Source of the DNA: Bryobacterales bacterium | GTDB taxonomy: Bacteria; Acidobacteriota; Terriglobia; Bryobacterales; UBA6623 | Direction: 5' to 3' | DNA length: 64,000 nt | Assembly: GCA_965261065.1 (NCBI GenBank) | Contig: OZ253444.1 | Span: 6,838,902-6,902,901, forward strand | In this document: positions 2,720 to 63,681 of the stretch, piece by piece | Position numbering within the stretch: the first letter of the stretch is position 1 | Layout of the letters: every line of letters begins with the position of its first letter | Notes under the pieces: model-generated | Seen by the model: the letters and a program-made list of their open reading frames with translations, nothing else | Told to the model about the DNA's origin: nothing | Database searches by the model: none | Program-made: the position numbers and the translations under genes

Positions 2720-3042
2720 GACATAGCCAGCACCGCTGCAGACTCCAGCTCGAAGAACTGCTGACGCCGGTCAGGGCTGTTCCCCAAACACGGCGACAAA
2801 CTCGTGACTGTCCGCTTCTAGAGCGTCGACTCTTGACATTCTAGACTGGAGACCGGAGGGGGCCTGATGCCTCGGCGAGTTCACGCGGAACGGAACATGA
2901 TTGTCGGCACGCACCGATGCCCCGCTGGATGACGGAGTTTCCCCGGGGAGCCCCAGCGTGGCCGCGAGGAGGAAGAAGAATGCGGTGCCGGCTAGAACGA
3001 AGAGGGTCTCCCTGCAAAGCTGCTTCACCGAGATTCGTGCTA

Positions 3043-4073
3043 GCTGGGTATCCACTTGACTCAGGTGACCCCAAGATGTAGTGTAGGGCCTGGTGGAGGA
3101 TTACCCGCGCGACCAACTCGAATTCGAGTCTCACTTTGCAAGCGAGGAGGCTTGCCGCGACTATCTGTTCGCCTTGCGCTGGCCAGAGGGTTTCCGCTGT
3201 CCAAGGTGTGGGCATGAGCGCGCTTGGCCGGTGCGCAAAGTGTGGTTCGAATGCGCTCGCTGCGGGCGGCAAACCTCCGTCACCGTCGGCACGATCTTTC
3301 AAGACACACGCAAGCCGCTGCGGCTGTGGTTCCGGGCGATGTGGACCATCACCACGCAGAAGAATGGGGCCAGCGCCCTGGGTCTACAGCGCGTTCTGGG
3401 ACTGGGCAGTTACCAAACCGCCTGGCCTTGGATGCACAAGCTGAGGCGAGCGATGGTGCGCCCGGGGCGGGAGCGATTGACGGGCCTCGTCGAGGTCGAT
3501 GAGACCTACTGGGGCGCTGAAGAAGAAGGGGTAATCGGCCGGCAGACCGAGCGTAAAGCGTTGATTGCAGTCGCCGCGGAAGAGAGAGGCACCGGGCTGG
3601 GGCGCATCCGCATGCAGCGCGTTCAGAACGCCTCGGCGGCCAGTTTGATGCCCTTCGTCGAGGAGTCGGTCGAGCCGGGCAGCGTGGTTGTTACCGGCAA
3701 CTGGTCGGGCTACGATCCGCTCAAGAAGAAGGACTACCAGCGTCGTATCATCTCGATTAACAACCGCCGCGAGCAGGCCTCGTAGCTACTGCCGAGGGTG
3801 CACTTGGCGATCTCGCTACTCAAGCGCTGGATGCTGGGCACGCATCAGGGGGCGGTCAGCCACGAGCATCTGGACTACTATCTCGACGAGTTCGTGTTCC
3901 GCTTCAATCGGCGCAGATCACGCAGTCGGGGCAAGCTCTTCTACCGCCTTGTGCAGCAGGCCATGGCGGTGGAGCCGACGCCGTACCGCTCGATCGTCGC
4001 CGATTGGGACGCTAAGACGCTGTGAGCCCAACTACAAGATGTTGGGGTCACCTGAGTCAAGTGGATATCCGGC
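3043..4073 (+). mobile_element. IS1595-family insertion sequence, copy 1
   Basis: Terminal IRs GC(T/C)GG(G/A)TATCCACTTGACTCAGGTGACCCCAA; 8-bp TSD TCGTGCTA at 3035-3042 and 4074-4081. Confidence 0.93.
3093..4025 (+). pseudogene. IS1595 transposase, inactivated
   Basis: Zn-ribbon CPRCG...CARC plus DDE domain; relative to copy 2, TAG at 3783-3785 (CAG) and catalytic VTDNW changed to VTGNW. Confidence 0.92.
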
Positions 4074-5601
4074 TCGTGCTATTCCAATTGTTCTTGACAT
4101 ATTCCGTTCTCCTACTCAGCGCCTGCCAACTCGGGCAGGAAGTTCTCCATGGCCCAAAGACCAAATTCTGCTTTCTCTTGCACAGATAAAGAAATCTGCT
4201 TGCCGTCGGGGCTGACGCTGAGGGCGCTGATGCGACGAGTGTCCAGTTCCTCCTCGGAGAGTTCGCCGGACCAAACCTCACGGATCAGTCCTGTCTCGAC
4301 TGCTTCCCCATCCTCTACGGAAACCCGGATAAGTCTTCCTTTCCCACGCAGGACCATGTAGATATACCGATTGTCGGGCGACCAAGCGTATAGGCCCAAC
4401 CGATGATCCATCCATGGTCCTTTCTCAGCTCGGTAGAGTTCGCGAGTTACGCCGGAGGCGATCGATACGATGTTGAGGCTTGTGTAGTCCGCCCCCCGAC
4501 GTTTAACCGCGAGCATCGTTCCATCGGGCGAGAGTCCGCCTGAGAACATCCTTCTATCCTCTTCAGGCAGCTCGTAGATCTCTTTGTCGCTTCCTATCTT
4601 GAGGTTTCTCTTCACGAAACGAGATGGTTTGCGGAGCTGCACGATGACTTCTTCGCCATTCTTCGTCCAGTCGGTGATCGCGAAAGCCGCTTCTGCGAGT
4701 AATAAGGTCGTCTCTCCAGTCTGGGCGTCCACCCGATAGAGTCCCAACGTGGGTTCAGTACGCGGTCGTCCCATCACAAGGAGCGATCTGCCATCCACGT
4801 GCCACCTGAGGCGTGAGAACTCCGCTAACTGCGGCACTACATCCCGCTCGGCGCCGGTTTCCACAGATCGAATCGAGATTCTCATCCCGGACTGATCGGA
4901 TGGTCCTTGCCAGCTTCGGTACGCAATCTGATTCCCGTCCGGCGACCACGCAGCCCAGTCATTGGAACCGCTGAACTGGTTGGTGAGAAGCCGCGGCTGA
5001 CCATTTACCTTGCCGGTCCGCGGGTCAATAGAAGCGAGGTGGGCGTTCGTCGGTTTGCTCATCAGCGTGTAGTAGAGCGTCCCGCCGTCATCGAAGCCCG
5101 CTGACTTGATCTCGCCTACATGAGGGCGCAGTAACTCCGGCTTCCCCTGTGGCTTGCCATCTTCAACCGCGATGGACCAGATGCCAAAGCTGCCCGATCG
5201 GTTGCTCGCAAAAAGCAGCGTCTCTCCGTTGGGAGTCCAGCCGAGGGCATAGTCGTCAGCAGGATGCGGAGAAACGGGAATGGGTTCGCGACTCTTGACC
5301 GGGAGAATGAACACGTCTCCGTCGGCCACTTCTTGATTTGGCGGGAAATCGTAAGCCACGTATTGTTTGTCGTGAGACAGAAAGGTCCGGCGGCGATAAC
5401 GCCTGGTCGATTCCAGTTCTCTCAGAGTTACCAGCGAACCATCGTCCACCGCCACAAGCACGAGGGCATAATGGCCGCGGCTGGCGGGGCCGGCGGTTTC
5501 GCCGGGCAAGTGAATTCTCGCAAGGATGTGCTTGCCGTCTGACGACCACGCATCCGGGATGACCCACCCGGCGCCGTCGCGGTACGGAGACTTGCTGTAA
5601 A

Positions 5602-9176: not shown

Positions 9177-10207
9177 GCCTGGTATCCACTTGACTCAGGT
9201 GACCCCAACATCTTGTAGTTGGGCTCACAGCGTCTTAGCGTCCCAATCGGCGCCGATCGAGCGGTACGGCGTCGGCTCCACCGCCATGGCCTGCTGCACA
9301 AGGCGGTAGAAGAGCTTGCCCCGACTGCGTGATCTGCGCCGATTGAAGCGGAACACGAACTCGTCGAGATAGTAGTCCAGATGCTCGTGGCTGACCGCCC
9401 CCTGATGCGTGCCCAGCATCCAGCGCTTGAGTAGCGAGATCGCCAAGTGCACCCTCGGCAGTAGCTGCGAGGCCTGCTCGCGGCGGTTGTTAATCGAGAT
9501 GATACGACGCTGGTAGTCCTTCTTCTTGAGCGGATCGTAGCCCGACCAGTTGTCGGTAACAACCACGCTGCCCGGCTCGACCGACTCCTCGACGAAGGGC
9601 ATCAAACTGGCCGCCGAGGCGTTCTGAACGCGCTGCATGCGGATGCGCCCCAGCCCGGTGCCTCTCTCTTCCGCGGCGACTGCAATCAACGCTTTACGCT
9701 CGGTCTGCCGGCCGATTACCCCTTCTTCTTCAGCGCCCCAGTAGGTCTCATCGACCTCGACGAGGCCCGTCAATCGCTCCCGCCCCGGGCGCACCATCGC
9801 TCGCCTCAGCTTGTGCATCCAAGGCCAGGCGGTTTGGTAACTGCCCAGTCCCAGAACGCGCTGTAGACCCATGGCGCTGGCCCCATTCTTCTGCGTGGTG
9901 ATGGTCCACATCGCCCGGAACCACAGCCGCAGCGGCTTGCGTGTGTCTTGAAAGATCGTGCCGGCGGTGACGGAGGTTTGCCGCCCGCAGCGAGCGCATT
10001 CGAACCACACTTTGCGCACCGGCCAAGCGCGCTCATGCCCACACCTTGGACAGCGGAAACCCTCTGGCCAGCGCAAGGCGAACAGATAGTCGCGGCAAGC
10101 CTCCTCGCTCGCAAAGCGAGACTCGAATTCGAGTTGGTCGCGCGGGTAATCCTCCACCAGGCCCTACACTACATCTTGGGGTCACCTGAGTCAAGTGGAT
10201 ACCCAGC
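9177..10207 (-). mobile_element. IS1595-family insertion sequence, copy 2
   Basis: Same 1031-bp element as copy 1, inverted; 8-bp TSD CTCGGGGT at 9169-9176 and 10208-10215. Confidence 0.93.
9225..10157 (-). CDS. IS1595 transposase, apparently intact
   Basis: 310 aa; VEVDETYWG, VTDNW and YLDEFVFRFNRR motifs all intact. Confidence 0.92.
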   Translation of the reverse strand: MEDYPRDQLEFESRFASEEACRDYLFALRWPEGFRCPRCGHERAWPVRKVWFECARCGRQTSVTAGTIFQDTRKPLRLWFRAMWTITTQKNGASAMGLQRVLGLGSYQTAWPWMHKLRRAMVRPGRERLTGLVEVDETYWGAEEEGVIGRQTERKALIAVAAEERGTGLGRIRMQRVQNASAASLMPFVEESVEPGSVVVTDNWSGYDPLKKKDYQRRIISINNRREQASQLLPRVHLAISLLKRWMLGTHQGAVSHEHLDYYLDEFVFRFNRRRSRSRGKLFYRLVQQAMAVEPTPYRSIGADWDAKTL

Positions 10208-22972: not shown

Positions 22973-23012
22973 GGTTCGTGCCGGACCGCTCCCTTACGGT
23001 CACGGCTCGGTT
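22973..23012 (+). repeat. Dispersed REP-like repeat, family B
   Basis: GGTTCGTGCCGGACCGCTCCCTTACGGTCACGGCTCGGTT; other copies at 38233-38265 (-), 50263-50302 and 61834-61853 (partial). Confidence 0.8.
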
Positions 23013-29088: not shown

Positions 29089-29112
29089 GTAGGGGCACGG
29101 CATGCCGTGCCC
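29089..29112 (+). repeat. GTAG-type REP palindrome
   Basis: GTAG-GGGCACGGCATGCCGTGCCC, a perfect 20-bp palindrome; related copies at 41761-41778 and 52354-52377. Confidence 0.75.
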
Positions 29113-38232: not shown

Positions 38233-38265
38233 AACCGAGCCGTGACCGTGAGGGAGCGGTCCGGC
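38233..38265 (-). repeat. Dispersed REP-like repeat, family B
   Basis: AACCGAGCCGTGACCGTGAGGGAGCGGTCCGGC, the reverse complement of the family B consensus. Confidence 0.8.
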
Positions 38266-41736: not shown

Positions 41737-41760
41737 TAGCCCGTTGAGCAAGGGAACGCG

Positions 41761-41778
41761 GGCACGGCATGCCGTGCC
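41761..41778. repeat. REP-like palindrome
   Basis: GGCACGGCATGCCGTGCC, the core of the 29089 element. Confidence 0.65.
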
Positions 41779-50262: not shown

Positions 50263-50302
50263 GGTTCGTGCCGGACCGCTCCCTCACGGTCACGGCTCTG
50301 TT
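50263..50302 (+). repeat. Dispersed REP-like repeat, family B
   Basis: 38/40 identical to 22973-23012. Confidence 0.8.
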
Positions 50303-52262: not shown

Positions 52263-55025
52263 GTGCCGCTGATGGGAAATAAGTCTTCCGGTGAGCGTAG
52301 AGTGGGCGGTTGGGGAAGTCTTATCCCAACGTGTTTCGGCGGGCCGGGATGGCGGGCACGGCGTGCCGTGCCCCTACATTGCCGGCTGGGGCTGATTGTC
52401 TGCTTGACTGCTTCCTGGGGCGTCGCGGCAAGTCCCGTCTTGGATGCCTCCTTGGAGACGGTGGGGCCCGTGGTTGTCGAGATCTATGAAGACCTCGCGC
52501 CTCCTCCGCCGTCGACCCCTGAGGAAGCCCAGGCGGGTTGGAAGAAGAAGTACGTCCACCACAAGGCCCGCGACATCAGTTTGACCGGGCTGACGCCCAC
52601 GTTTCGCTATACCGAGTCGGCCTTTGGCTTTCCACGGCTGCCAACCAAGTTCTCGAAGAACGCTCTGGTGTTGGATTACTCCGAGCCCTTCGCGCTGAAG
52701 GCAGGCATGAAAACCGCACTGCCGGCCGGCAGCCATCAGTTCCGGCTTCGGTCGAAGGGGTCGGCGCGGTTTGAGCTGGACGGCAAGATCCTCGCGACCA
52801 CAAAACGCCAGAAGCCGAACCGGTCGAGCAACGATGAGTTGCCGCCACCCCCGAAGTTTGTGGAGCCTCCTCTTCGCCCGGCAAGTGTTCCCCATCAAGA
52901 CGTGCTGGTGACTGTAGACCTCGACGGCGGCGAGCACCAGTTCACGCTCATCGCGCTGATCGGCGGTTATGGCTTGATTCCCGATCCGGCGGAGCTTTCG
53001 CTGAGCTACTCCAGTGACGGGGAAGTCGACCGACTGCTCGGGGGCGCTGACACGCCGTTGCTGACGAACGAGGGTTGGGAAGTCTACGAGGCCGAGGTCA
53101 TCGCGCGCCACAGCCAGGGAGATGTGGCGCGGCGGCGCGCGGCCGATGATGCGGTCGAGGCCGCTTGGGTGGAGCGGCATCGTCGCGTGCGCGAGTGGTT
53201 GGCCACCGAGGCTCCGGTGGCGGTCCCCGGGGTTGCGTCCGAGGAGTCCGTCCACAACGACATCGACCGGTTCGTTCAAGTGAGACTCGAAGAGGCAGGT
53301 GTCCGGCCCATGCCGCTGACGACGGACCTCGAGTTTCTTCGCCGGCTGTCGCTCGATGTGATTGGAGTCATCCCCACGGCGGATGAGCTTCGCGCGTATC
53401 TCGAGGACGCGCCCGAGCGGCGAAGACATCGGACCATCGAGCGGTTGCTGAGCCACCCGGGTTGGGCCGACCACTGGGTTCCCTACTGGCAGGACGTGTT
53501 GGCCGAAAACCCCAGCATCCTGAAGCCGGATCTCAACAACAGCGGTCCGTTTCGATGGTGGCTGCATCAAGCCTTCAGCGATGACCTGCCGTTCGATCGC
53601 GTCGTGACGGAGCTAATTGAAATGGAGGGGAGCTTGTACCAGGGCGCGCCGCGTGGATTCGCGATGGCGAGCCTCAACGATGCACCGATGGCGGCGAAGG
53701 CCGATATTCTTTCGCAGGCGTTTCTGGGCCAGAAGTTGTCGTGCGCCCGCTGCCATGACGCACCGTTTCATCCCTTTAAGCAGAAGGACTTATTCAGCGT
53801 CGCCGCGCTACTTGACGGCAAACCCATCGAGCTTCCCGAGGCCAGCACCGTGCCGGTCCGCGAGGGGGCGCGCAAGCCGTTCGTTCAGATCTCGCTGAAG
53901 CCGGGCGACCGGATTGATCCGCACTGGCCGTTCCAAGCTCTGAGCGGAAACGCCATCGTGGCCGAACCGCCGAGCAATACGTCGGTGGCGAGCCGCCATC
54001 AATTGGCGAGCATGGTGGTGGATCCGCAGAACGAGCGCTTCGCCCAGGTGGTGGTCAACCGGGTTTGGAAGCGCTACCTGGGGCGGGGATTGGTCGAGCC
54101 GGCGAACGATTGGTCCGAGGCGGAAGTCTCGCACCCGGAATTGCTGCGGTATCTGTCACGGCAGTTCCTCGAGAGCGGCTACGACCTCAAGCATGTCGCG
54201 CGTTTGATCTTTTCGTCGCACGTGTATCAACGAAAGCCCGATCCCGCGGCGGGCGAGTCCGGCGGCGAACGCGGCGCTCTGTTGGCCGGCCCCGTACGGA
54301 GGCGGCTGAGCGCCGAGCAGTTGGTCGATTCGCTCCACGTGGCGGCGGGCAAGAGGCTCGATTGCGAGGAGCTGAATCTCAACCCCTTGGGCGACCGTCC
54401 GCTGAGGCAGTTCGTGAATATGGGGACGCCGCGGCGTGCTTGGGAGATGACGGCGTTGTCGAACGAGCGGGACCGTCCGTCGCTGGCCTTGCCGAGGGCC
54501 CAGGCGTTGGTGGACGTTTTGACGACGTTCGGTTGGCGCCAGGCGCGGCAAGACCCAGCCACGGTGCGGGACGACGGGCCTTCGCCGATGCAGACGCTGA
54601 TGCTGGCGAACGGTCCGATGGGTACGCGGATTACGCGGCTCTCCGACGACAGCGGTTTCACGCGGTTGGCGTTGGAAGACCGGCGGCTGGATGAGCTGGT
54701 GCGTGAGACCTATCTGCGGCTGCTGTCGCGTCCGCCAAGCCAGGACGAGACGAACGTTTTCGTCGATTACCTGCAACCGACCTACGCCGACCGCCGAGTG
54801 CCCGGGAGGACGCTGTCGGACGTCGATCTGTCGAAGAAGACAGACAAGAGAGTTTCCTGGGCCAACCACATGTCGGAGGAATCGAATCTGATTCGGATGG
54901 AAGAAGAACGAACCGTGCGGATGGGCGACGAGCCGACCGCGGCTCTGCAACCGGCCTTCCGCGAACGCTACGAAGATGTGGTTTGGACCTTGGCGAACTC
55001 GCCGGAGTTCAAGATTATTCCGTAG
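52263..55025 (+). CDS. DUF1549/DUF1553 (planctomycete PSD1-type) protein
   Basis: HNDIDRFV, TDLEFLRRLSLDVIG, CARCHD, FAQVVVNRVWKRYLG, RRLSAEQLVDS; start uncertain. Confidence 0.87.
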   Translation: MPLMGNKSSGERRVGGWGSLIPTCFGGPGWRARRAVPLHCRLGLIVCLTASWGVAASPVLDASLETVGPVVVEIYEDLAPPPPSTPEEAQAGWKKKYVHHKARDISLTGLTPTFRYTESAFGFPRLPTKFSKNALVLDYSEPFALKAGMKTALPAGSHQFRLRSKGSARFELDGKILATTKRQKPNRSSNDELPPPPKFVEPPLRPASVPHQDVLVTVDLDGGEHQFTLIALIGGYGLIPDPAELSLSYSSDGEVDRLLGGADTPLLTNEGWEVYEAEVIARHSQGDVARRRAADDAVEAAWVERHRRVREWLATEAPVAVPGVASEESVHNDIDRFVQVRLEEAGVRPMPLTTDLEFLRRLSLDVIGVIPTADELRAYLEDAPERRRHRTIERLLSHPGWADHWVPYWQDVLAENPSILKPDLNNSGPFRWWLHQAFSDDLPFDRVVTELIEMEGSLYQGAPRGFAMASLNDAPMAAKADILSQAFLGQKLSCARCHDAPFHPFKQKDLFSVAALLDGKPIELPEASTVPVREGARKPFVQISLKPGDRIDPHWPFQALSGNAIVAEPPSNTSVASRHQLASMVVDPQNERFAQVVVNRVWKRYLGRGLVEPANDWSEAEVSHPELLRYLSRQFLESGYDLKHVARLIFSSHVYQRKPDPAAGESGGERGALLAGPVRRRLSAEQLVDSLHVAAGKRLDCEELNLNPLGDRPLRQFVNMGTPRRAWEMTALSNERDRPSLALPRAQALVDVLTTFGWRQARQDPATVRDDGPSPMQTLMLANGPMGTRITRLSDDSGFTRLALEDRRLDELVRETYLRLLSRPPSQDETNVFVDYLQPTYADRRVPGRTLSDVDLSKKTDKRVSWANHMSEESNLIRMEEERTVRMGDEPTAALQPAFRERYEDVVWTLANSPEFKIIP
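52354..52377 (-). repeat. GTAG-type REP palindrome inside the 5' end of the DUF1553 ORF
   Basis: GGGCACGGCGTGCCGTGCCC-CTAC on the + strand. Confidence 0.7.
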
Positions 55026-58363: not shown

Positions 58364-59053
58364 ATGATCGTTCTGGCTCTCGATACGACTAGCCGTTCGG
58401 GGAGTGTTGCCCTTGCGTCCGGCGACGAGATTCTCGAAGCGAAAGCCGTGGAAGCCCCCGATGGGTTCGGGCAGGTGGTTTATCAGGAGATCCGTGATCT
58501 GTTGCAGAGGCACGGCGTTGGGCTCGAGGAGGTTGATTGCTACGCCGGCGCGACCGGGCCTGGCTCGTTCACCGGAATACGCATTGGGTTGACGGCGGTC
58601 AAGGCGCTGGCGGAGGTGCACGGCAAGCCGGTGGTGGGCGTGTCGAACCTGCGGGCGATTGCATCGTGTGTGGCGGGTGCCTATCGGGTTCCGGTGATGG
58701 ACGCGCGGCGGGGGGAGGCGTACGCCGCTGTTTACGACGAGGGTCTGCGGGCGGCGGTGCCGGAGGTCGTGACGGGTTGGCGGGATTTTTTGGAATTGCT
58801 GGCGGGGCGCGAGGTGACGTTCGCGGCTGTGAACGCCGCGCTGTTTGGGGAGGATGGGGTTGCGCCGTTGACAGGACAGGGAAGTCGGCGGGAGGTTGTG
58901 GCGGAACCGCTCGCCGGGGCGGTGGCGCGGCTTGCGGTTGTTGAGTGCCGGGAGGGCCGGGGGATTACGCCCGAGGCGCTTGATGCGAATTATGTTCGCC
59001 GGCCTGATGCCGAGTTGAATTGGAAGGATCCGGCGGCGGGGGTGGGGCGTTGA
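58364..59053 (+). CDS. tsaB: tRNA t6A biosynthesis protein TsaB
   Basis: VLALDTT, GPGSFTGIRIG, DARRGEAY, ANYVRRPDAE. Confidence 0.95.
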   Translation: MIVLALDTTSRSGSVALASGDEILEAKAVEAPDGFGQVVYQEIRDLLQRHGVGLEEVDCYAGATGPGSFTGIRIGLTAVKALAEVHGKPVVGVSNLRAIASCVAGAYRVPVMDARRGEAYAAVYDEGLRAAVPEVVTGWRDFLELLAGREVTFAAVNAALFGEDGVAPLTGQGSRREVVAEPLAGAVARLAVVECREGRGITPEALDANYVRRPDAELNWKDPAAGVGR

Positions 59054-59305
59054 CGGGCGAACCGAGCTTGCTTCCACAACCCAAGTACGCTTCCGCAAAC
59101 CAAACTCAGAGCCGCGGGCCTCAGGGGCCGTGAAAAAATCGGGGAGTCCACGGTTGACACTGCGGGGAGCCTCGCGGCAACTCATCGTGCAAGTTGAGGC
59201 CTCCAACGACACAACCGAGCCGCGGGTGGGAACCCGCGGTTCCCTCTGGGCGCAACCCGGTGCCGCCAACCACGAAGCCAAGCCCCGGTACGGGGCGATG
59301 GAAAG

Positions 59306-61199
59306 ATCGGGTCGGGTGACGGGGATTGCGCCCCGGCACCCTCCCACACCACCGGACATACGGTTTTCCGTATCCGGCGGTTGGACCCAGCGACTTTACC
59401 CGTACGCCGCAAGATCCGATGGCACCACCAACCCGTAGCGCTTCAGAATGGCGTTCGACAGCCCCGTGTGCAACAACACATGATGCGCCATACTCCACGC
59501 TCCACGACGCGTCGCGACTACACGCAGCAGCCCTTCGCCCACCCCCAGCCGCCGTAACGCTCTCTGGCGGCCGCGCTTCTTGTGCCAACGCAGCCAAAAG
59601 CACTTCCGCATGTGTCGCCGGATCCAACCTTCCAGCCGAAAGACATTCCGACGCTGCTGGGCCAGCCGGTACTATCCCCACCAGCCCACCACGTATCGCC
59701 GCCACTCGTCGCGTAACGCCCGACTCGTGACACTGCGACCACTGCGCCAAATCTCTCGCACCTTCTGCTTGAATCGTGCAACACTCTGCGGCGCTACTTC
59801 TCGCTGCCCTTGGCGGTTGATTCGAAACCCCAGAAACTTTCGCTCCCACGGCCTCCCTGCCCCGCTCTTGGCACGGTTCACTCGCAAACGCAGATGCCTC
59901 TCGATCCAGTCCCCGATCCCCGCCAACACTCGCTTCGCCGCCGCCTCGCTGCTCACATAGACGTTGCAGTCGTCGGCATAACGGCAAAAGCGCAGCCCGC
60001 GGTTCTCCAGTTCCCGATCCAGCGCATCCAGATAGAGGTTCGCCAGCAACGGAGACAGCGGCCCGCCTTGTGGCGTGCCCTCCTCGCTTCGAACCACCAC
60101 CCCCGCCGCCATCACCCCGGCCCGCAGATACCGTCCGATCAACCGCAACACCTTCTTGTCCCGAATCACTTCCGCGATCCGTTGCATCAGAATGTCATGG
60201 TTGACGTGGTCGAAGAACTGCGCGATATCGATATCCACCACCCAGTCCTTGCCCTCGCGGACGTATCCTTGCGCCGCTCGTACGGCGTCGTGCGCGCTGC
60301 GCCTCGGACGAAAACCGTAGCTCGACTCGCTGAACCGAGGATCGAAAATCGGTTGCAACACTTGCAGCAATGCTTGCTGTACCACCCGATCCATCACCGT
60401 CGGTATGCCGAGCCGACGCGTCCCCCCGTTCGGCTTCGGGATGTCCACCCGCCTCACCGGGCTCGGCGTCCATCGCCCGGCCACGAGTTTCGCCCGCATC
60501 TTCGCGCCGTGGCGCTGCCAATGAACTTCGAGTTCGTCGACGGTCATCCGATCGATCCCAGCCGCGCCGCAATTGCGTTTGACCGCCGCCCGCGCCCGCG
60601 CCAAGTTCGGCTCGGCGACCACCTGGTCCATCAGATCTTCGTGCATCACTTTCTGTCGAGAGTCTCGCGACACTCGCCCTGGCTTCCACCGACCTCTGCC
60701 CGCAGCGGCTCCACCGCTTCTGCGTCGGCCTGCTCCCCGTTTCGTTCCCCCACCGGGGAAGGACCTTGCGGCCCGGGACTCCGGGAAACCTCTTGGGCAC
60801 TGTATCAGTCGCTCCTCTAGCTTTGCTCCTTGGTCCTTCGGCCCTTGGCTCCAGCGGCGTTACCCGCCTTCTCGGCTACTATGGCCTCTGCTGACTTCTC
60901 CTTCGCTCTCACGCAGGAGCCCTCCCCAGGTAAGGTGCTGTTTCTTTCCCTTCCTACCGTCCGGCTCTACCTCGCACGTCTGGATGGACTTTGGGCTTTA
61001 CTGTGGCTAGCCAGCTCGCCGCCCGTACGCGGCCTCTCTGCCGGTTCGTGTTCCTACGGTCGAAGGTTTGTTTCCCGCTGCCTTCAGCTTGGCTCGCGGC
61101 GTTGGCCACGAGATCCACCTTGCGGTTCCCTACGGTTACCTCCATCGGTTCCGGTGAGTACGTTGCAACTCACAAGTAAACAGCCCATGCTGGGCACAC
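59306..61199 (-). mobile_element. Group II intron, class IIC
   Basis: 5' GTGTGCCCAGCATGGG; short D5 with CGC triad (AACCGCCGGATACGGAAAACCGTATGTCCGGTGGTGTGG); D6 ending ...ACCCGAT; encodes an RT; inserted 3 nt after a hairpin. Confidence 0.95.
59396..60673 (-). pseudogene. ltrA: Group II intron RT/maturase with a premature stop
   Basis: RRLGIPTVMDR, SYGFRP, DIAQFFD, GTPQGGPLSP, RYADD; in-frame TAG at 59672-59674, after which YRLAQ...WIRRHMRKCFWLRW continues; no endonuclease domain. Confidence 0.92.
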
Positions 61200-61239
61200 T
61201 AGCCCACGACGCCAGTCGTGGGAAGAAGCCGCCAAACGG

Positions 61240-61630
61240 CGGGTCCTTCCTCCCGTACCACGGATCAAAGTCCCTCTCGCGCTTCCACAACACATGCAGC
61301 AGGACCGCCAACTTGCGCGCCACCGCCACCACCGCCTTGCGCTTGGCCGCCTTGCCGCCCCGCGCCGCCAACCGCAGTCCTCAACGCCGCAGCTGCGAGT
61401 CGTCGCCGTGGCGTCCCAACACGTATTGCGCACATTGCACCAGCAGCTTCCGCAGCATCGGATCCCCGCTCTTGGTGACGCTCAGCTGCGGGGAGATCGC
61501 CCCCGAGTCACGCTTCTTCGGACGGAGCCCCCTCCGCGGTCCCGCCCCGCGGCTGCTCTTCAACTTCGTGGCGTCGTTGTCCAGGTTCAGCACGCACGCC
61601 AACGACGTGATCGGCCCCACGCCACGGTAG
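61240..61630 (-). pseudogene. IS110-family transposase C-terminal fragment
   Basis: GVGPITS...SG..SPQLSVTKSGDPMLRKLLVQCAQYVLG...DSQLRR*GLRLAARGGKAAKRKAVVAVARKLAVLLH; TGA at 61381-61383; N-terminal DEDD domain absent. Confidence 0.88.
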
Positions 61631-61653
61631 GGGCGGGGCGAAGCCCGCTGCCC
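61627..61653 (+). repeat. GTAG-type REP palindrome at the IS110 truncation point
   Basis: GTAG-GGGCGGGGCGAAGCCCGCTGCCC. Confidence 0.55.
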
Positions 61654-61842
61654 GGGAGCGTACCGCACTCCCGAGACCGCGAGTCTCCTCATTTCATCTC
61701 GGTTTCTTGCGTTGGCACGGATTCGCGCCGAGAACTCCGGTGGTGGCGTGAAACCTGATTAGGATGCCGGCTACCGATCAGCCCAATGGTTTGATCAGGC
61801 CGCGGCTGATTGTCCCCAGCATTTTTTCACAGCCCCTCACGG

Positions 61843-63681
61843 TCACGGCTCGGGTGCTTGCGTTGCGGCGTCGATGGCGCGCTGCACGTCGGGACGGAGC
61901 TGAATACCCAGCTCGTTCAGCGAGCGGGGCGGGACCGTGGAGGGGGCTTCGCACATCAGGTCGGTGCCCTTGGCGGTTTTGGGGAAGGGGATGACATCGC
62001 GGATCGTCGACTCGCCCGCGAGGATCATAATCAAACGATCGAGCCCTAGGGCGATGCCGCCGTGGGGCGGCGTGCCGTACTCGAGCGCCTCCAGGAAGAA
62101 ACCGAAGCGGTGGTGAGCCTCTTCCTCGCTAAAGCCGAGAGCCGAAAAGACCGTGGCCTGCACGTCCCGGCGGTGAATACGAATTGAGCCCGAGCCCAGC
62201 TCGACTCCGTTCAACACCAGATCGTAGGCTTTCGAGCGGCACTGGGCCGGATCGGTGGTGAGCTTGTCGATGTCTTCGTCGTGAACGGACGTGAAGGGAT
62301 GGTGGGCCGACTCCCAGCGCTTCTCCTCCTCGTCCCACTCGAACATCGGGAAGTCGGTGACCCACAAGAATCGGAAGTCGGCCGGGTTGAACAGGTTGTG
62401 GCGGTCGCGGTATTTCTGCGCCACCTGTAGGCGCAACGACCCGGCAGCCTTCAAGGCACTCTCGGCCGGTTTCGGCGTGGTGGGGGTGTCGGCGGTGGTG
62501 CAAAGCACGAGCAGATCGCCCTCCTCTACATCGACGCGCTCCCGGACTGCGGTCATCGGCTCGGCGAAGTCGCGATCGAGCCGTTTCATGTCGTCGAAGA
62601 CACGCAGGTCTAGTTCGTTGCCGATGGGCTTCAGTTCGTCGCGCTCACGGCGGGTCAGCGTGCCGACCTTGGGGGTGCGGATGGCCACCAGCGGCATGCC
62701 GTCTTTGGTGAGCTCGCCGGCGGGGAAGAGGTCGTCGACGCGCGTCATCGGCGGCAGGCGCAGGTCGGGCTTGTCGCTGCCGTAGCGCTCCATGGCTTCG
62801 GCATAGGTGAGCCGCTCGAAGGGCGGGTCGGGAATCGCGTGGTCGGCGGCTTGGGCCGAGTTGACCATGGCCTTCTCGATCACGTCGAAAATAACGTCCT
62901 GTTGGACGAATGACATTTCGAGGTCAATCTGCGTGAACTCGGGCTGGCGGTCGGCGCGCAGGTCTTCGTCCCGGAAGCAGCGCACGATCTGAAAGTAGCG
63001 GTCGAAGCCGCTGATCATCAACAGTTGCTTGAAGAGTTGCGGCGACTGCGGAAGCGCATAAAAGTTGCCCAGTTGGATGCGGCTTGGAACCAGGAAATCA
63101 CGCGCGCCCTCGGGCGTGGACCGCGTCATGAAAGGCGTTTCGATCTCGAAGAAGTTCTGCTTGTGGAACGCCTCGCGGATCGCGAAGTTCACCTTCTCGC
63201 GCAGCAGGATGTTGCGCTGCATGTGCGGACGGCGGAGATCGATGTAGCGGTATTGCAGGCGCACGTCTTCGCTGACCGAGGCGTCGTCTTCGATCAAGAA
63301 CGGCGGCGTGCGCGACTGGTTGAGCACGTGGAGCTTCTCGACCACCACCTCGACCTCGCCGGTCGCGAGATCGGGATTGATGGTGTCGTCGGAGCGGCGG
63401 ATCACCGGGCCCTCGACGGCGATGACGTATTCGCTGCGCAGCATCTCCGCGCGCCGGTGGATCGCGGGATCGTTTTCGGTGTTGAAGACGATCTGAGCGA
63501 TGCCGCTGCGGTCGCGCAGGTGGACGAAGATCAGGCCTCCCAAGTCGCGGCGGCGATGGACCCAGCCCATCAGCACGGCGCGGTTGCCGACATCGGAGGG
63601 GCGCAGGTCGCCGCACAGGTGGGTGCGGCGCAGCTCGCCGAGAAAGTCGAGAGACAGAGAGGCTTCAGACGGAGTTTCCAT
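61843..63681 (-). CDS. aspS: Aspartate--tRNA ligase
   Basis: RTHLCGDL, WVHRRRDLGG, STPEGARDF, ALPQSPQLFKQ, FRDEDLRADRQPEFTQID, PPHGGIALGLDR. Confidence 0.98.
   Translation of the reverse strand: METPSEASLSLDFLGELRRTHLCGDLRPSDVGNRAVLMGWVHRRRDLGGLIFVHLRDRSGIAQIVFNTENDPAIHRRAEMLRSEYVIAVEGPVIRRSDDTINPDLATGEVEVVVEKLHVLNQSRTPPFLIEDDASVSEDVRLQYRYIDLRRPHMQRNILLREKVNFAIREAFHKQNFFEIETPFMTRSTPEGARDFLVPSRIQLGNFYALPQSPQLFKQLLMISGFDRYFQIVRCFRDEDLRADRQPEFTQIDLEMSFVQQDVIFDVIEKAMVNSAQAADHAIPDPPFERLTYAEAMERYGSDKPDLRLPPMTRVDDLFPAGELTKDGMPLVAIRTPKVGTLTRRERDELKPIGNELDLRVFDDMKRLDRDFAEPMTAVRERVDVEEGDLLVLCTTADTPTTPKPAESALKAAGSLRLQVAQKYRDRHNLFNPADFRFLWVTDFPMFEWDEEEKRWESAHHPFTSVHDEDIDKLTTDPAQCRSKAYDLVLNGVELGSGSIRIHRRDVQATVFSALGFSEEEAHHRFGFFLEALEYGTPPHGGIALGLDRLIMILAGESTIRDVIPFPKTAKGTDLMCEAPSTVPPRSLNELGIQLRPDVQRAIDAATQAPEP

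Follow-up and report, generated by a model that had tools for sequence, protein, structure and literature searches.

The region between aspS and tsaB in a Bryobacterales (Acidobacteriota) genome was examined within a stretch of 64,000 nt, referred to here as the window, and holds a complete group II intron flanked by two palindromes. The intron lies on the minus strand and runs from 61199 to 59306 (1,894 nt). Palindrome P1 (61203-61222) precedes its 5' end, palindrome P2 (59282-59296) follows its 3' end, and the relic of an IS110-family insertion sequence (IS) lies directly upstream on the same strand (61244-61699). As read from the sequence, the intron begins at 61199 with GUGUGCCC (in a longer reading, GUGUGCCCAGC) and ends at 59306 with ...CCCGAU (in a longer reading, ...CACCCGACCCGAU). 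The resulting RNA boundaries, GUGUG and GAU, fit the conserved ends of group II introns (5' GUGYG ... AY 3'), and three Rfam models match at or above their gathering scores: RF02001 (group-II-D1D4-3) at 60937-61103 with 83.8 bits, RF01998 (group-II-D1D4-1) at 60841-60933, and RF00029 (Intron_gpII, domains V-VI) at 59306-59382. The boundaries are fixed by an empty junction found in four sequencing runs and by alignment to three related introns (L004, L087 and L088), and the ribozyme parts are colinear with those of intact relatives. Domain V (59349-59380, minus strand) was placed by the RF00029 alignment, and domain VI (59306-59345, minus strand), with a bulged A 7 nt from the 3' end, by the same alignment together with sequence reading. 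The gene for the intron-encoded protein (IEP) sits in domain IV (59396-60673, minus strand).

The IEP, of about 425 aa, consists of a reverse transcriptase (RT) domain and an X/maturase domain only (RVT_1 and GIIM), scores 387 bits against TIGR04416 and lacks any DNA-binding or endonuclease (D/En) extension. In a comparison with PDB structures its best solved relative was the GsI-IIC RT (6ar1, 450 bits), and the other IIC structures were the Eubacterium rectale IIC ribonucleoprotein (RNP; 7uim, 327 bits) and 5hhl and 5hhj (about 277 bits each). The IIB T.el4h protein (6me0) and the IIA protein LtrA reached 129 and 119 bits, so that IIC RTs outscored IIA and IIB RTs three- to fourfold. Domain V reads CCGCC in place of the consensus GAGCC in the RF00029 alignment, that is, a CGC triad replaces AGC. 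A CGC triad in domain V is a trait of IIC ribozymes such as that of O. iheyensis. The insertion site also has the form used by class IIC, with a hairpin shortly upstream, a short intron-binding site 1 (IBS1) that pairs with exon-binding site 1 (EBS1), and an IBS3 of a single nucleotide. The class IIC assignment made in the original prediction is well supported, judging by the IEP scores, the triad, the intron's length, the lack of an En domain and the hairpin just upstream, and the window intron is a new member of the class.

Deleting 59306-61199 joins the exons as AGCCCCGGTACGGGGCGATGGAAAG/TAGCCCACGACGCCAGTCGTGGG (here and below a slash in a target site marks the insertion point), which reproduces exactly the two adjacent palindromes that the original prediction had quoted. 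On the intron strand the 5' exon reads CCCACGAC-TGGC-GTCGTGGG-CTA/, so that, as had been claimed, a perfect 8-bp stem ends 3 nt before the intron and the exon ends in GCTA. The 3' exon reads /CTTTCCATC-GCCCCG-TAC-CGGGGC on the same strand. P1 is the palindrome CCCACGAC-N4-GTCGTGGG; P2, which on the plus strand reads GCCCCG-GTA-CGGGGC, lies 9 nt from the insertion site and forms the second half of a composite unit. Read on the plus strand, the joined site is G/TAG-CCCACGACGCCAGTCGTGGG, a GTAG head followed by a 20-nt GC-rich palindrome, in which the intron has split the head between G59305 and TAG61200-61202 (CTA/C on the intron strand). Folded as single-stranded DNA (ssDNA), the joined site forms separate hairpins at -25.5 kcal/mol (z = -4.8), and none of 200 shuffles was as stable. 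Published repetitive extragenic palindromes (REPs) have the layout of GTAG followed by a GC-rich palindrome, for example GTAGCCCGGATGCAATCCGGG (PMC2817692 Table 1; PMC3733652). The window unit shares this layout: in the empty site the conserved head adjoins the palindrome, and the palindrome is extragenic, lying between aspS with the IS relic and tsaB.

The insertion point also matches the guide sequences of the intron. The putative Id3 loop GCUAGCCA (61004-61011, minus strand) aligns to the loop hairpin of the Rfam D1D4-3 model and contains EBS1, UAGC (61009 to 61006). IBS1, GCUA (61200-61203), consists of the last stem G and CUA, the latter being the TAG of the head on the plus strand, and the first nucleotide of the 3' exon (IBS3; 59305, minus strand) is a C on the intron strand and the G of the GTAG head on the plus strand. 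A single match of 4 nt means little, and the pairing was therefore compared across related introns. EBS1 and IBS1 read UAGC with GCUA in the window, UAGG with CCUA in L087, UGGC with GCCA in L004, L013, L086 and L089, UGGG with CCCA in L005, UGGA with UCCA in L010 and L012, and GAGC with GCUC in L008. All four pairs are perfect in 9 of 10 close relatives, the exception being L088. Across 44 intron sites of the wider clade, the 3-nt core pairing is kept in 42, with nine different core triplets, and all four pairs in 31; when exons were dealt at random, the core was kept at a mean of 12.8 sites (maximum 24) and all four pairs at a mean of 5.4 (maximum 14). Such covariation shows that the EBS1-IBS1 pairing is real, and together with the Id3 alignment it bears out the original assignment of UAGC at 61006-61009 to GCTA. 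In 21 of 23 relatives with mapped 3' ends the 3' exon starts with C, so that GTAG is restored on the opposite strand. EBS3 was not located by covariation, since the relatives show too few variants of the first 3'-exon base for any column to follow it cleanly.

The empty form of the unit exists as DNA elsewhere. Logan contigs from four of four metagenome runs (X1, X3, X4 and X5) carry the exact empty junction, in which 59234-59305, without a mismatch, runs directly into TAGCCCACGACGCAAGTCGTGGGAAGA, with one difference in the loop. These junctions are not an allele of the aspS locus, because the sequence continues into other flanks. No empty allele of that locus was found; four of four strain-level contigs (the window and L001-L003; 99.4-99.7% identical) are occupied, and the intron copy is fixed in at least four strains. 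In X1 the empty junction had a depth of 42 where the single-copy flank had 7.8, and in X4 the values were 125 and 21-26. A ratio of about 5 is thus seen in two unrelated studies, which speaks for several empty copies in each genome and against contamination from other species, though it is no proof. A contig spanning the occupied junction (61179-61268) had single-copy depth. The P1 hairpin itself reached 8-16x single-copy depth, and its other copies run at 61235/61238 into another AGCCCCGGTACGGGGCG and not into the sequence of the window locus. Since P1 continues into another P2, the units would form arrays, with an order P2-P1-...-P2 suggested by these loose ends.

A metagenome pattern scan for exact P1 (TAGCCCACGAC-N4-GTCGTGGGAAG) returned only two JGI contigs, L084 (367-498) and L085 (6557-6715). 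Each holds one empty P1-CTA-(9-10 nt)-P2 unit and, about 110-140 nt away, another unit that has diverged and faces the other way; further P2 pairs are present in L084. The heads of both units are GTAG in L084 and ATAG in L085, and the stem changes from unit to unit are compensatory (CCCATGAC/GTCATGGG). Read by eye, the copies are preceded by a stop codon, and the sequence around them appears to be non-coding. The empty bipartite unit was found six times in all, four of these in L084 and L085 (two in each) and the rest in Logan contigs; both orientations occur, and the position of P2 is conserved in six of six. Palindromes clustered in alternating orientation, as in L084 and L085, are the arrangement of bacterial interspersed mosaic elements (BIMEs). 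A BIME-like mosaic of repeated palindromic pieces also makes up the 3'-exon side of the window locus (59123-59305), where depth rises to 50-2,100 against 8-47 for the single-copy flank (7-40x) and contigs break at 59123, 59210/59215 and 59260/59261. The original description of a composite REP-like element is borne out by this architecture (GTAG with a 20-nt palindrome, 9 nt, and a second palindrome), and the empty units found elsewhere as DNA indicate that the flanking palindromes are not unique in the genome. The P1 20-mer is identical or nearly so in L084 and L085 despite flanks quite unlike those of the window. REPs are normally species-specific, and an identical P1 across differing flanks is thus unusual.

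Related introns occupy sites of the same kind. A sister copy (L088), 96.4% identical to the window intron, sits at GGGCACGGCATGCCGTGCCC-CTA/C and most likely belongs to the same genome as the window-locus contig L003, because the two come from the same sample with equal coverage (4.95x and 4.94x). The palindrome at its site belongs to a GTAG-headed family, GTAG-GGGCACGGC(A/G)(T/C)GCCGTGCCC, also written GTAGGGGCACGGC..., with copies in the window at 29089-29112, 52354-52377 and 41758-41778 and another at L001:1593. Three headed copies fall within about 75 kb (29089, 52377 and L001:1593, the last just outside the window), and in four public runs the family core is 50-200 times as deep as its flanks; this is an abundant REP family by any measure. 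Reads mapped to the window's own REP copy showed no occupied copy of the family. A further relative (L087), 90% identical, sits at GGGCGCGA-TGAA-TCGCGCCC-CTA/C, with EBS1 UAGG. The relative P0017, at 79% protein identity and with the same loop GCUAGCCA, is present as copies with identical IEPs (L090-L097) at seven distinct sites, of which one assembly contains five. One palindrome family, gccGCGGACCYC-N6-GRGGTCCKC-GCTA/CGGGT, accounts for six of the seven, and its members differ by compensatory stem changes. Among the 44 sites of the wider clade, 21 carry CTA directly before the insertion point, downstream of a GC-rich hairpin. Other sub-lineages use CTC/ or CCA/, and those of Firmicutes use terminators consisting of a hairpin and TTTG/ (...TTTTTG/).

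The reading that best accounts for these observations, and one that we regard as likely, is that a class IIC intron reverse-spliced into a GTAG-headed, REP-like palindrome in the aspS-tsaB region of this Bryobacterales genome. The observation in the original prediction is real, and its interpretation largely right. Following the established biology of IIC introns (PMC1702495, PMC4424553), the RNP would bind the DNA stem-loop, probably in single-stranded form; EBS1 would read 3 to 4 nt (NCUA) and EBS3 a single nucleotide (C), and reverse splicing would take place directly after CUA (CTA in DNA). Because the IEP has no endonuclease domain, cDNA synthesis would be primed by the nascent strand at a replication fork. 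Since the GTAG head is the conserved part of a REP, a UAG-type EBS1 with a C-reading EBS3 would fit every member of a family. The fourth EBS1 letter tracks the first base of the stem. The insertion parts the G from TAG and may, speculatively, disable that REP for a REP-associated tyrosine transposase (RAYT).

More tentatively, we propose that IIC introns with a UAG loop, whose 3' exon nearly always starts with C, form a widespread clade that may be specialised on the GTAG head of REP and BIME palindromes in Acidobacteriota, Verrucomicrobiota, Kiritimatiellae and some Gammaproteobacteria. The targeting rule would be a simple one, a hairpin followed by NCUA/C.

Several caveats attach to the reading as insertion into a REP-like target, and they concern the protein, the abundance of the unit and the behaviour of relatives. 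The IEP gene carries an in-frame TAG (59672-59674) after the GWWG motif of the X domain (...VVGWWG-stop-YRLAQ...), at a position where the relatives read GWWGYYRLAQ, intact in L004 and in the 416-aa relatives P0001-P0003. As read, the window copy cannot encode a full-length IEP. All four strain-level contigs share the codon, which is therefore no sequencing error, and the sister copy L088, at a different genomic site, has the identical GWWG-stop-YRLAQ (IEP at 3001-4278). A TAG shared at two sites suggests a defective intron mobilised in trans, read-through of the codon, or gene conversion, and it hints that introns with a defective protein may still be able to spread when intact copies assist them. 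With its IEP cut by the TAG, the window copy is probably non-autonomous; to splice or move, it would depend on an IEP provided in trans or on the codon being read through. Contigs from metatranscriptome runs X25-X28 cover intron-family sequence (92-99% alike) in the interval 59000-61700 of the window, which suggests that the family is transcribed in the environment or persists there as RNA. These runs gave no evidence of splicing: the exon flanks are at zero depth, and the contigs hold intron-family sequence only. Given that the empty unit also occurs as DNA, a joined form would be ambiguous anyway. Apart from the TAG, the IEP of L001 has a 12-nt in-frame insertion (GGACTGGGTGGT) after the match to window position 60249, relative to the window, L002 and L003.

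The abundance of the unit is a second concern. The P1/P2 family that flanks the window copy is low-copy (about 5-16x depth), and depth ratios from metagenome unitigs can include related species. No other copy of P1 or P2 was found in the 64 kb at up to 3 mismatches, nor, apart from the same locus, in the 83 loci searched, so that P1/P2, with one copy in 64 kb, does not show the abundance of high-copy REPs (about 100 per genome or more). Composite REP-like, or BIME-like, element is a fair description, the REP label being drawn from architecture and repetition only. The idea that this lineage homes to an abundant REP family stands at the level of the lineage (L088, L087, P0017 and the 21 of 44 sites ending in CTA), with the qualification that the palindromes flanking the window copy belong to a low-copy family.

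The relatives are the third concern. L088 pairs its loop UGGC with the exon CCUA at three of four positions, one of them a wobble, and given this mismatch the head may be less important than the hairpin. The nearest relatives with EBS1 UGGC (L004, L086, L089 and L013) use another target, ...GGAGNCC...GCCA/. As these introns sit at a different motif, REP use is a property of sub-lineages. Their sites have features of their own: L004, L013, L086, L089 and L005 have a YNGGAR-loop hairpin about 10 nt upstream, followed by ...GCCA/ or ...CCCA/, and the 5' exons of L086 and L089 are nearly the same despite different samples. The 5'-exon motif of the UGGC and UGGG types could represent another repeated family of targets. 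Two nearly identical introns of OZ255821, L010 and L012, have flanks on both sides that look related by eye, and the intron there seems to lie inside another repeated element.

The mismatch in L088, which sits in a REP all the same, is also the starting point for an alternative without any REP specificity. On this account the intron takes any stable GC-rich hairpin, REPs being the commonest hairpins in these genomes, and the agreement of UAG with CUA reflects descent and not selection for the head. IIC introns do depend mainly on the stem-loop (PMC1702495), and the use of CTC/, CCA/ and TTTG/ by other sub-lineages is in keeping with such a view. What it leaves unaccounted for is that the 21 sites ending in CTA are nearly all followed by C, rebuilding GTAG, that the CTA/C pattern recurs in Acidobacteriota, Verrucomicrobiota, Kiritimatiellae and Gammaproteobacteria, and that the P0017 relative is found in one palindrome family at least six times. 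We therefore consider an absence of REP specificity unlikely.

A further alternative is that the hairpin is the intrinsic terminator or attenuator of aspS or of the IS110 relic, in which case the insertion would be of the ordinary terminator type and the repeat incidental. IIC introns classically lie after terminators (PMC1702495, PMC4424553), the window hairpin is downstream of convergent genes, the joined exon contains a short pyrimidine/T stretch (CTACTTTCC), and the Firmicute relatives sit after a hairpin and T-runs. The window hairpin has no real U-run, however; P1 and P2 recur as a unit in other genomes at several-fold depth, and the junction coincides with a conserved GTAG head. As for the other copies, the sister and relative copies sit in bona fide repeated palindromes and not after ordinary terminators, which are the sites of the Firmicute relatives. 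An ordinary terminator insertion is improbable on this evidence. REPs can themselves act as terminators, and the terminator and REP readings are not exclusive.

That the palindromes are the right end of the adjacent IS110 element, and the intron targets the IS and not a REP, is very improbable: a fragment of the transposase C-terminus does run in frame into the hairpin, and the stop codons of relatives fall at about that position, but similarity to the related element L083, whose 3' region is unrelated, stops at 61244, full-length copies of the IS in the runs diverge from the window at 61240/61245, other P1 copies continue into another P2 and not into the IS, and L084 and L085 carry the unit without the IS.

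Insertion into a GTAG-headed, REP-like palindrome remains the preferred reading, and the IS relic is a neighbour and not part of the intron. It is internally deleted and 3'-truncated. Queries for the closer IS110 relatives P0121 and P0145 gave no record. A 5'-UTR piece (61614-61699; 86 nt, 94% match to L083) is fused, across a 10-nt microhomology GGCGTGGGGC, to the transposase C-terminus (61244-61623; the last approximately 380 nt of the gene, 83% identical), with about 760 nt deleted. The relic matches Pfam Transposase_20 and positions 226-342 of 343 of NCBIfam transpos_IS110. Members of the IS110 family have a DEDD N-terminal domain and Transposase_20 in about 340-390 aa; the relic has lost the N-terminal domain by deletion and lacks the native stop, C-terminus and right end. 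It also has an in-frame TGA at 61381, which is TGG in L002 and L003, and full-length copies of its IS exist in the same metagenomes. IS110 is the IS family most often found at REPs (PMC1525189), and the relic therefore fits a REP cluster.

The window contains other repeats. The family GCCGGACCGCTCCCTYACGGTCACGGCTCGGTT occurs at 22980-23012, 38233-38265, 50270-50302 and 61834-61859; the last copy overlaps the aspS stop codon, and many run contigs diverge on both sides of 61821-61853. Two 1,031-nt copies at 3043-4073 and 9177-10207 are 99% identical and inverted, each with terminal inverted repeats of about 41 nt, and their bracketing of 5.1 kb looks like an IS pair or a composite-transposon arrangement. 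A bacterial RNase P RNA of class A lies at 513-912 on the minus strand (278.6 bits), and its 5' part is partially duplicated 1.4 kb away, at 2246-2316, over 71 nt with 90% identity.

A 2015 review lists three types of target for bacterial group II introns, namely homing sites, intrinsic terminators and integron attC sites (PMC4424553). If the specialisation proposed here is true, REPs would be a further dedicated target class beside these three, and the intron would compete directly with RAYT and IS110 enzymes for the same hairpins. GTAG-headed REPs can reach tens to hundreds of copies per genome, as the family at the L088 site does. The specialisation would then explain how a retroelement without an endonuclease finds many harmless intergenic landing sites, and would account for the frequency of such introns in Acidobacteria and Verrucomicrobia of soil. 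It would also explain why several kinds of mobile DNA accumulate at REP clusters, as with the IIC intron beside an IS110 relic here. For an earlier association of introns with REPs, our literature search, whose coverage largely excludes subscription journals, found only one table entry as a weak hint: a group II intron of P. putida KT2440 listed as REP-associated in 2 of 9 copies (Tobes & Pareja 2006, PMC1525189). As far as we found, IIC introns with a UAG loop have not previously been described as specialised on the GTAG head of a REP.

Among known introns the window copy is most readily compared with the terminator-type IIC introns, such as B.h.I1 of Bacillus halodurans (Toor 2006, PMC1702495; Robart 2007, as cited in PMC4424553). 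It shares with them a length of about 1.9 kb, an IEP of RT and X domains only, a position a few nucleotides after a stem-loop, an IBS1 of 3-4 nt, an IBS3 of 1 nt and the CGC triad. It differs in that its stem-loop is a repeated GTAG-headed palindrome in place of a hairpin with a U-run, and in that IBS1 and IBS3 coincide with the conserved head. The IIC-attC introns, such as S.ma.I2 (Quiroga 2008 and Leon & Roy 2009, as cited in PMC4424553), offer a second parallel, being a IIC sub-lineage on one repeated family of ssDNA-folding sites that is used by another recombinase. The window target is a REP/BIME-type palindrome and not an integron attC site, and no integron is present. At the level of the protein the closest solved relatives are the GsI-IIC RT (6ar1) and the E. 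rectale IIC RNP/Marathon RT (7uim, 5hhl), from which the window IEP differs by its TAG.

The target, for its part, resembles the GTAG REPs and BIMEs (Nunvar 2010, PMC2817692; Di Nocera 2013, PMC3733652) in its extragenic position, its GTAG head followed by a 20-nt GC-rich palindrome, the clustering of palindromes in alternating orientation and the compensatory stem changes between copies. It departs from published REPs in that the P1 family is low-copy and its 20-mer is identical across contigs with differing flanks. REPs are already known as landing sites of mobile elements, including IS621, ISPpu9/10 and ISPa11 of the IS110 family and IS1397 (Tobes & Pareja 2006, PMC1525189), and an IS110 relic lies in the same repeat cluster of the window. 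Unlike these IS, the window intron would be guided by RNA and would reverse-splice into the head at one fixed position. The KT2440 entry gives no mechanism or EBS/IBS rule, whereas here the pairing rule is shown and a mechanism proposed.

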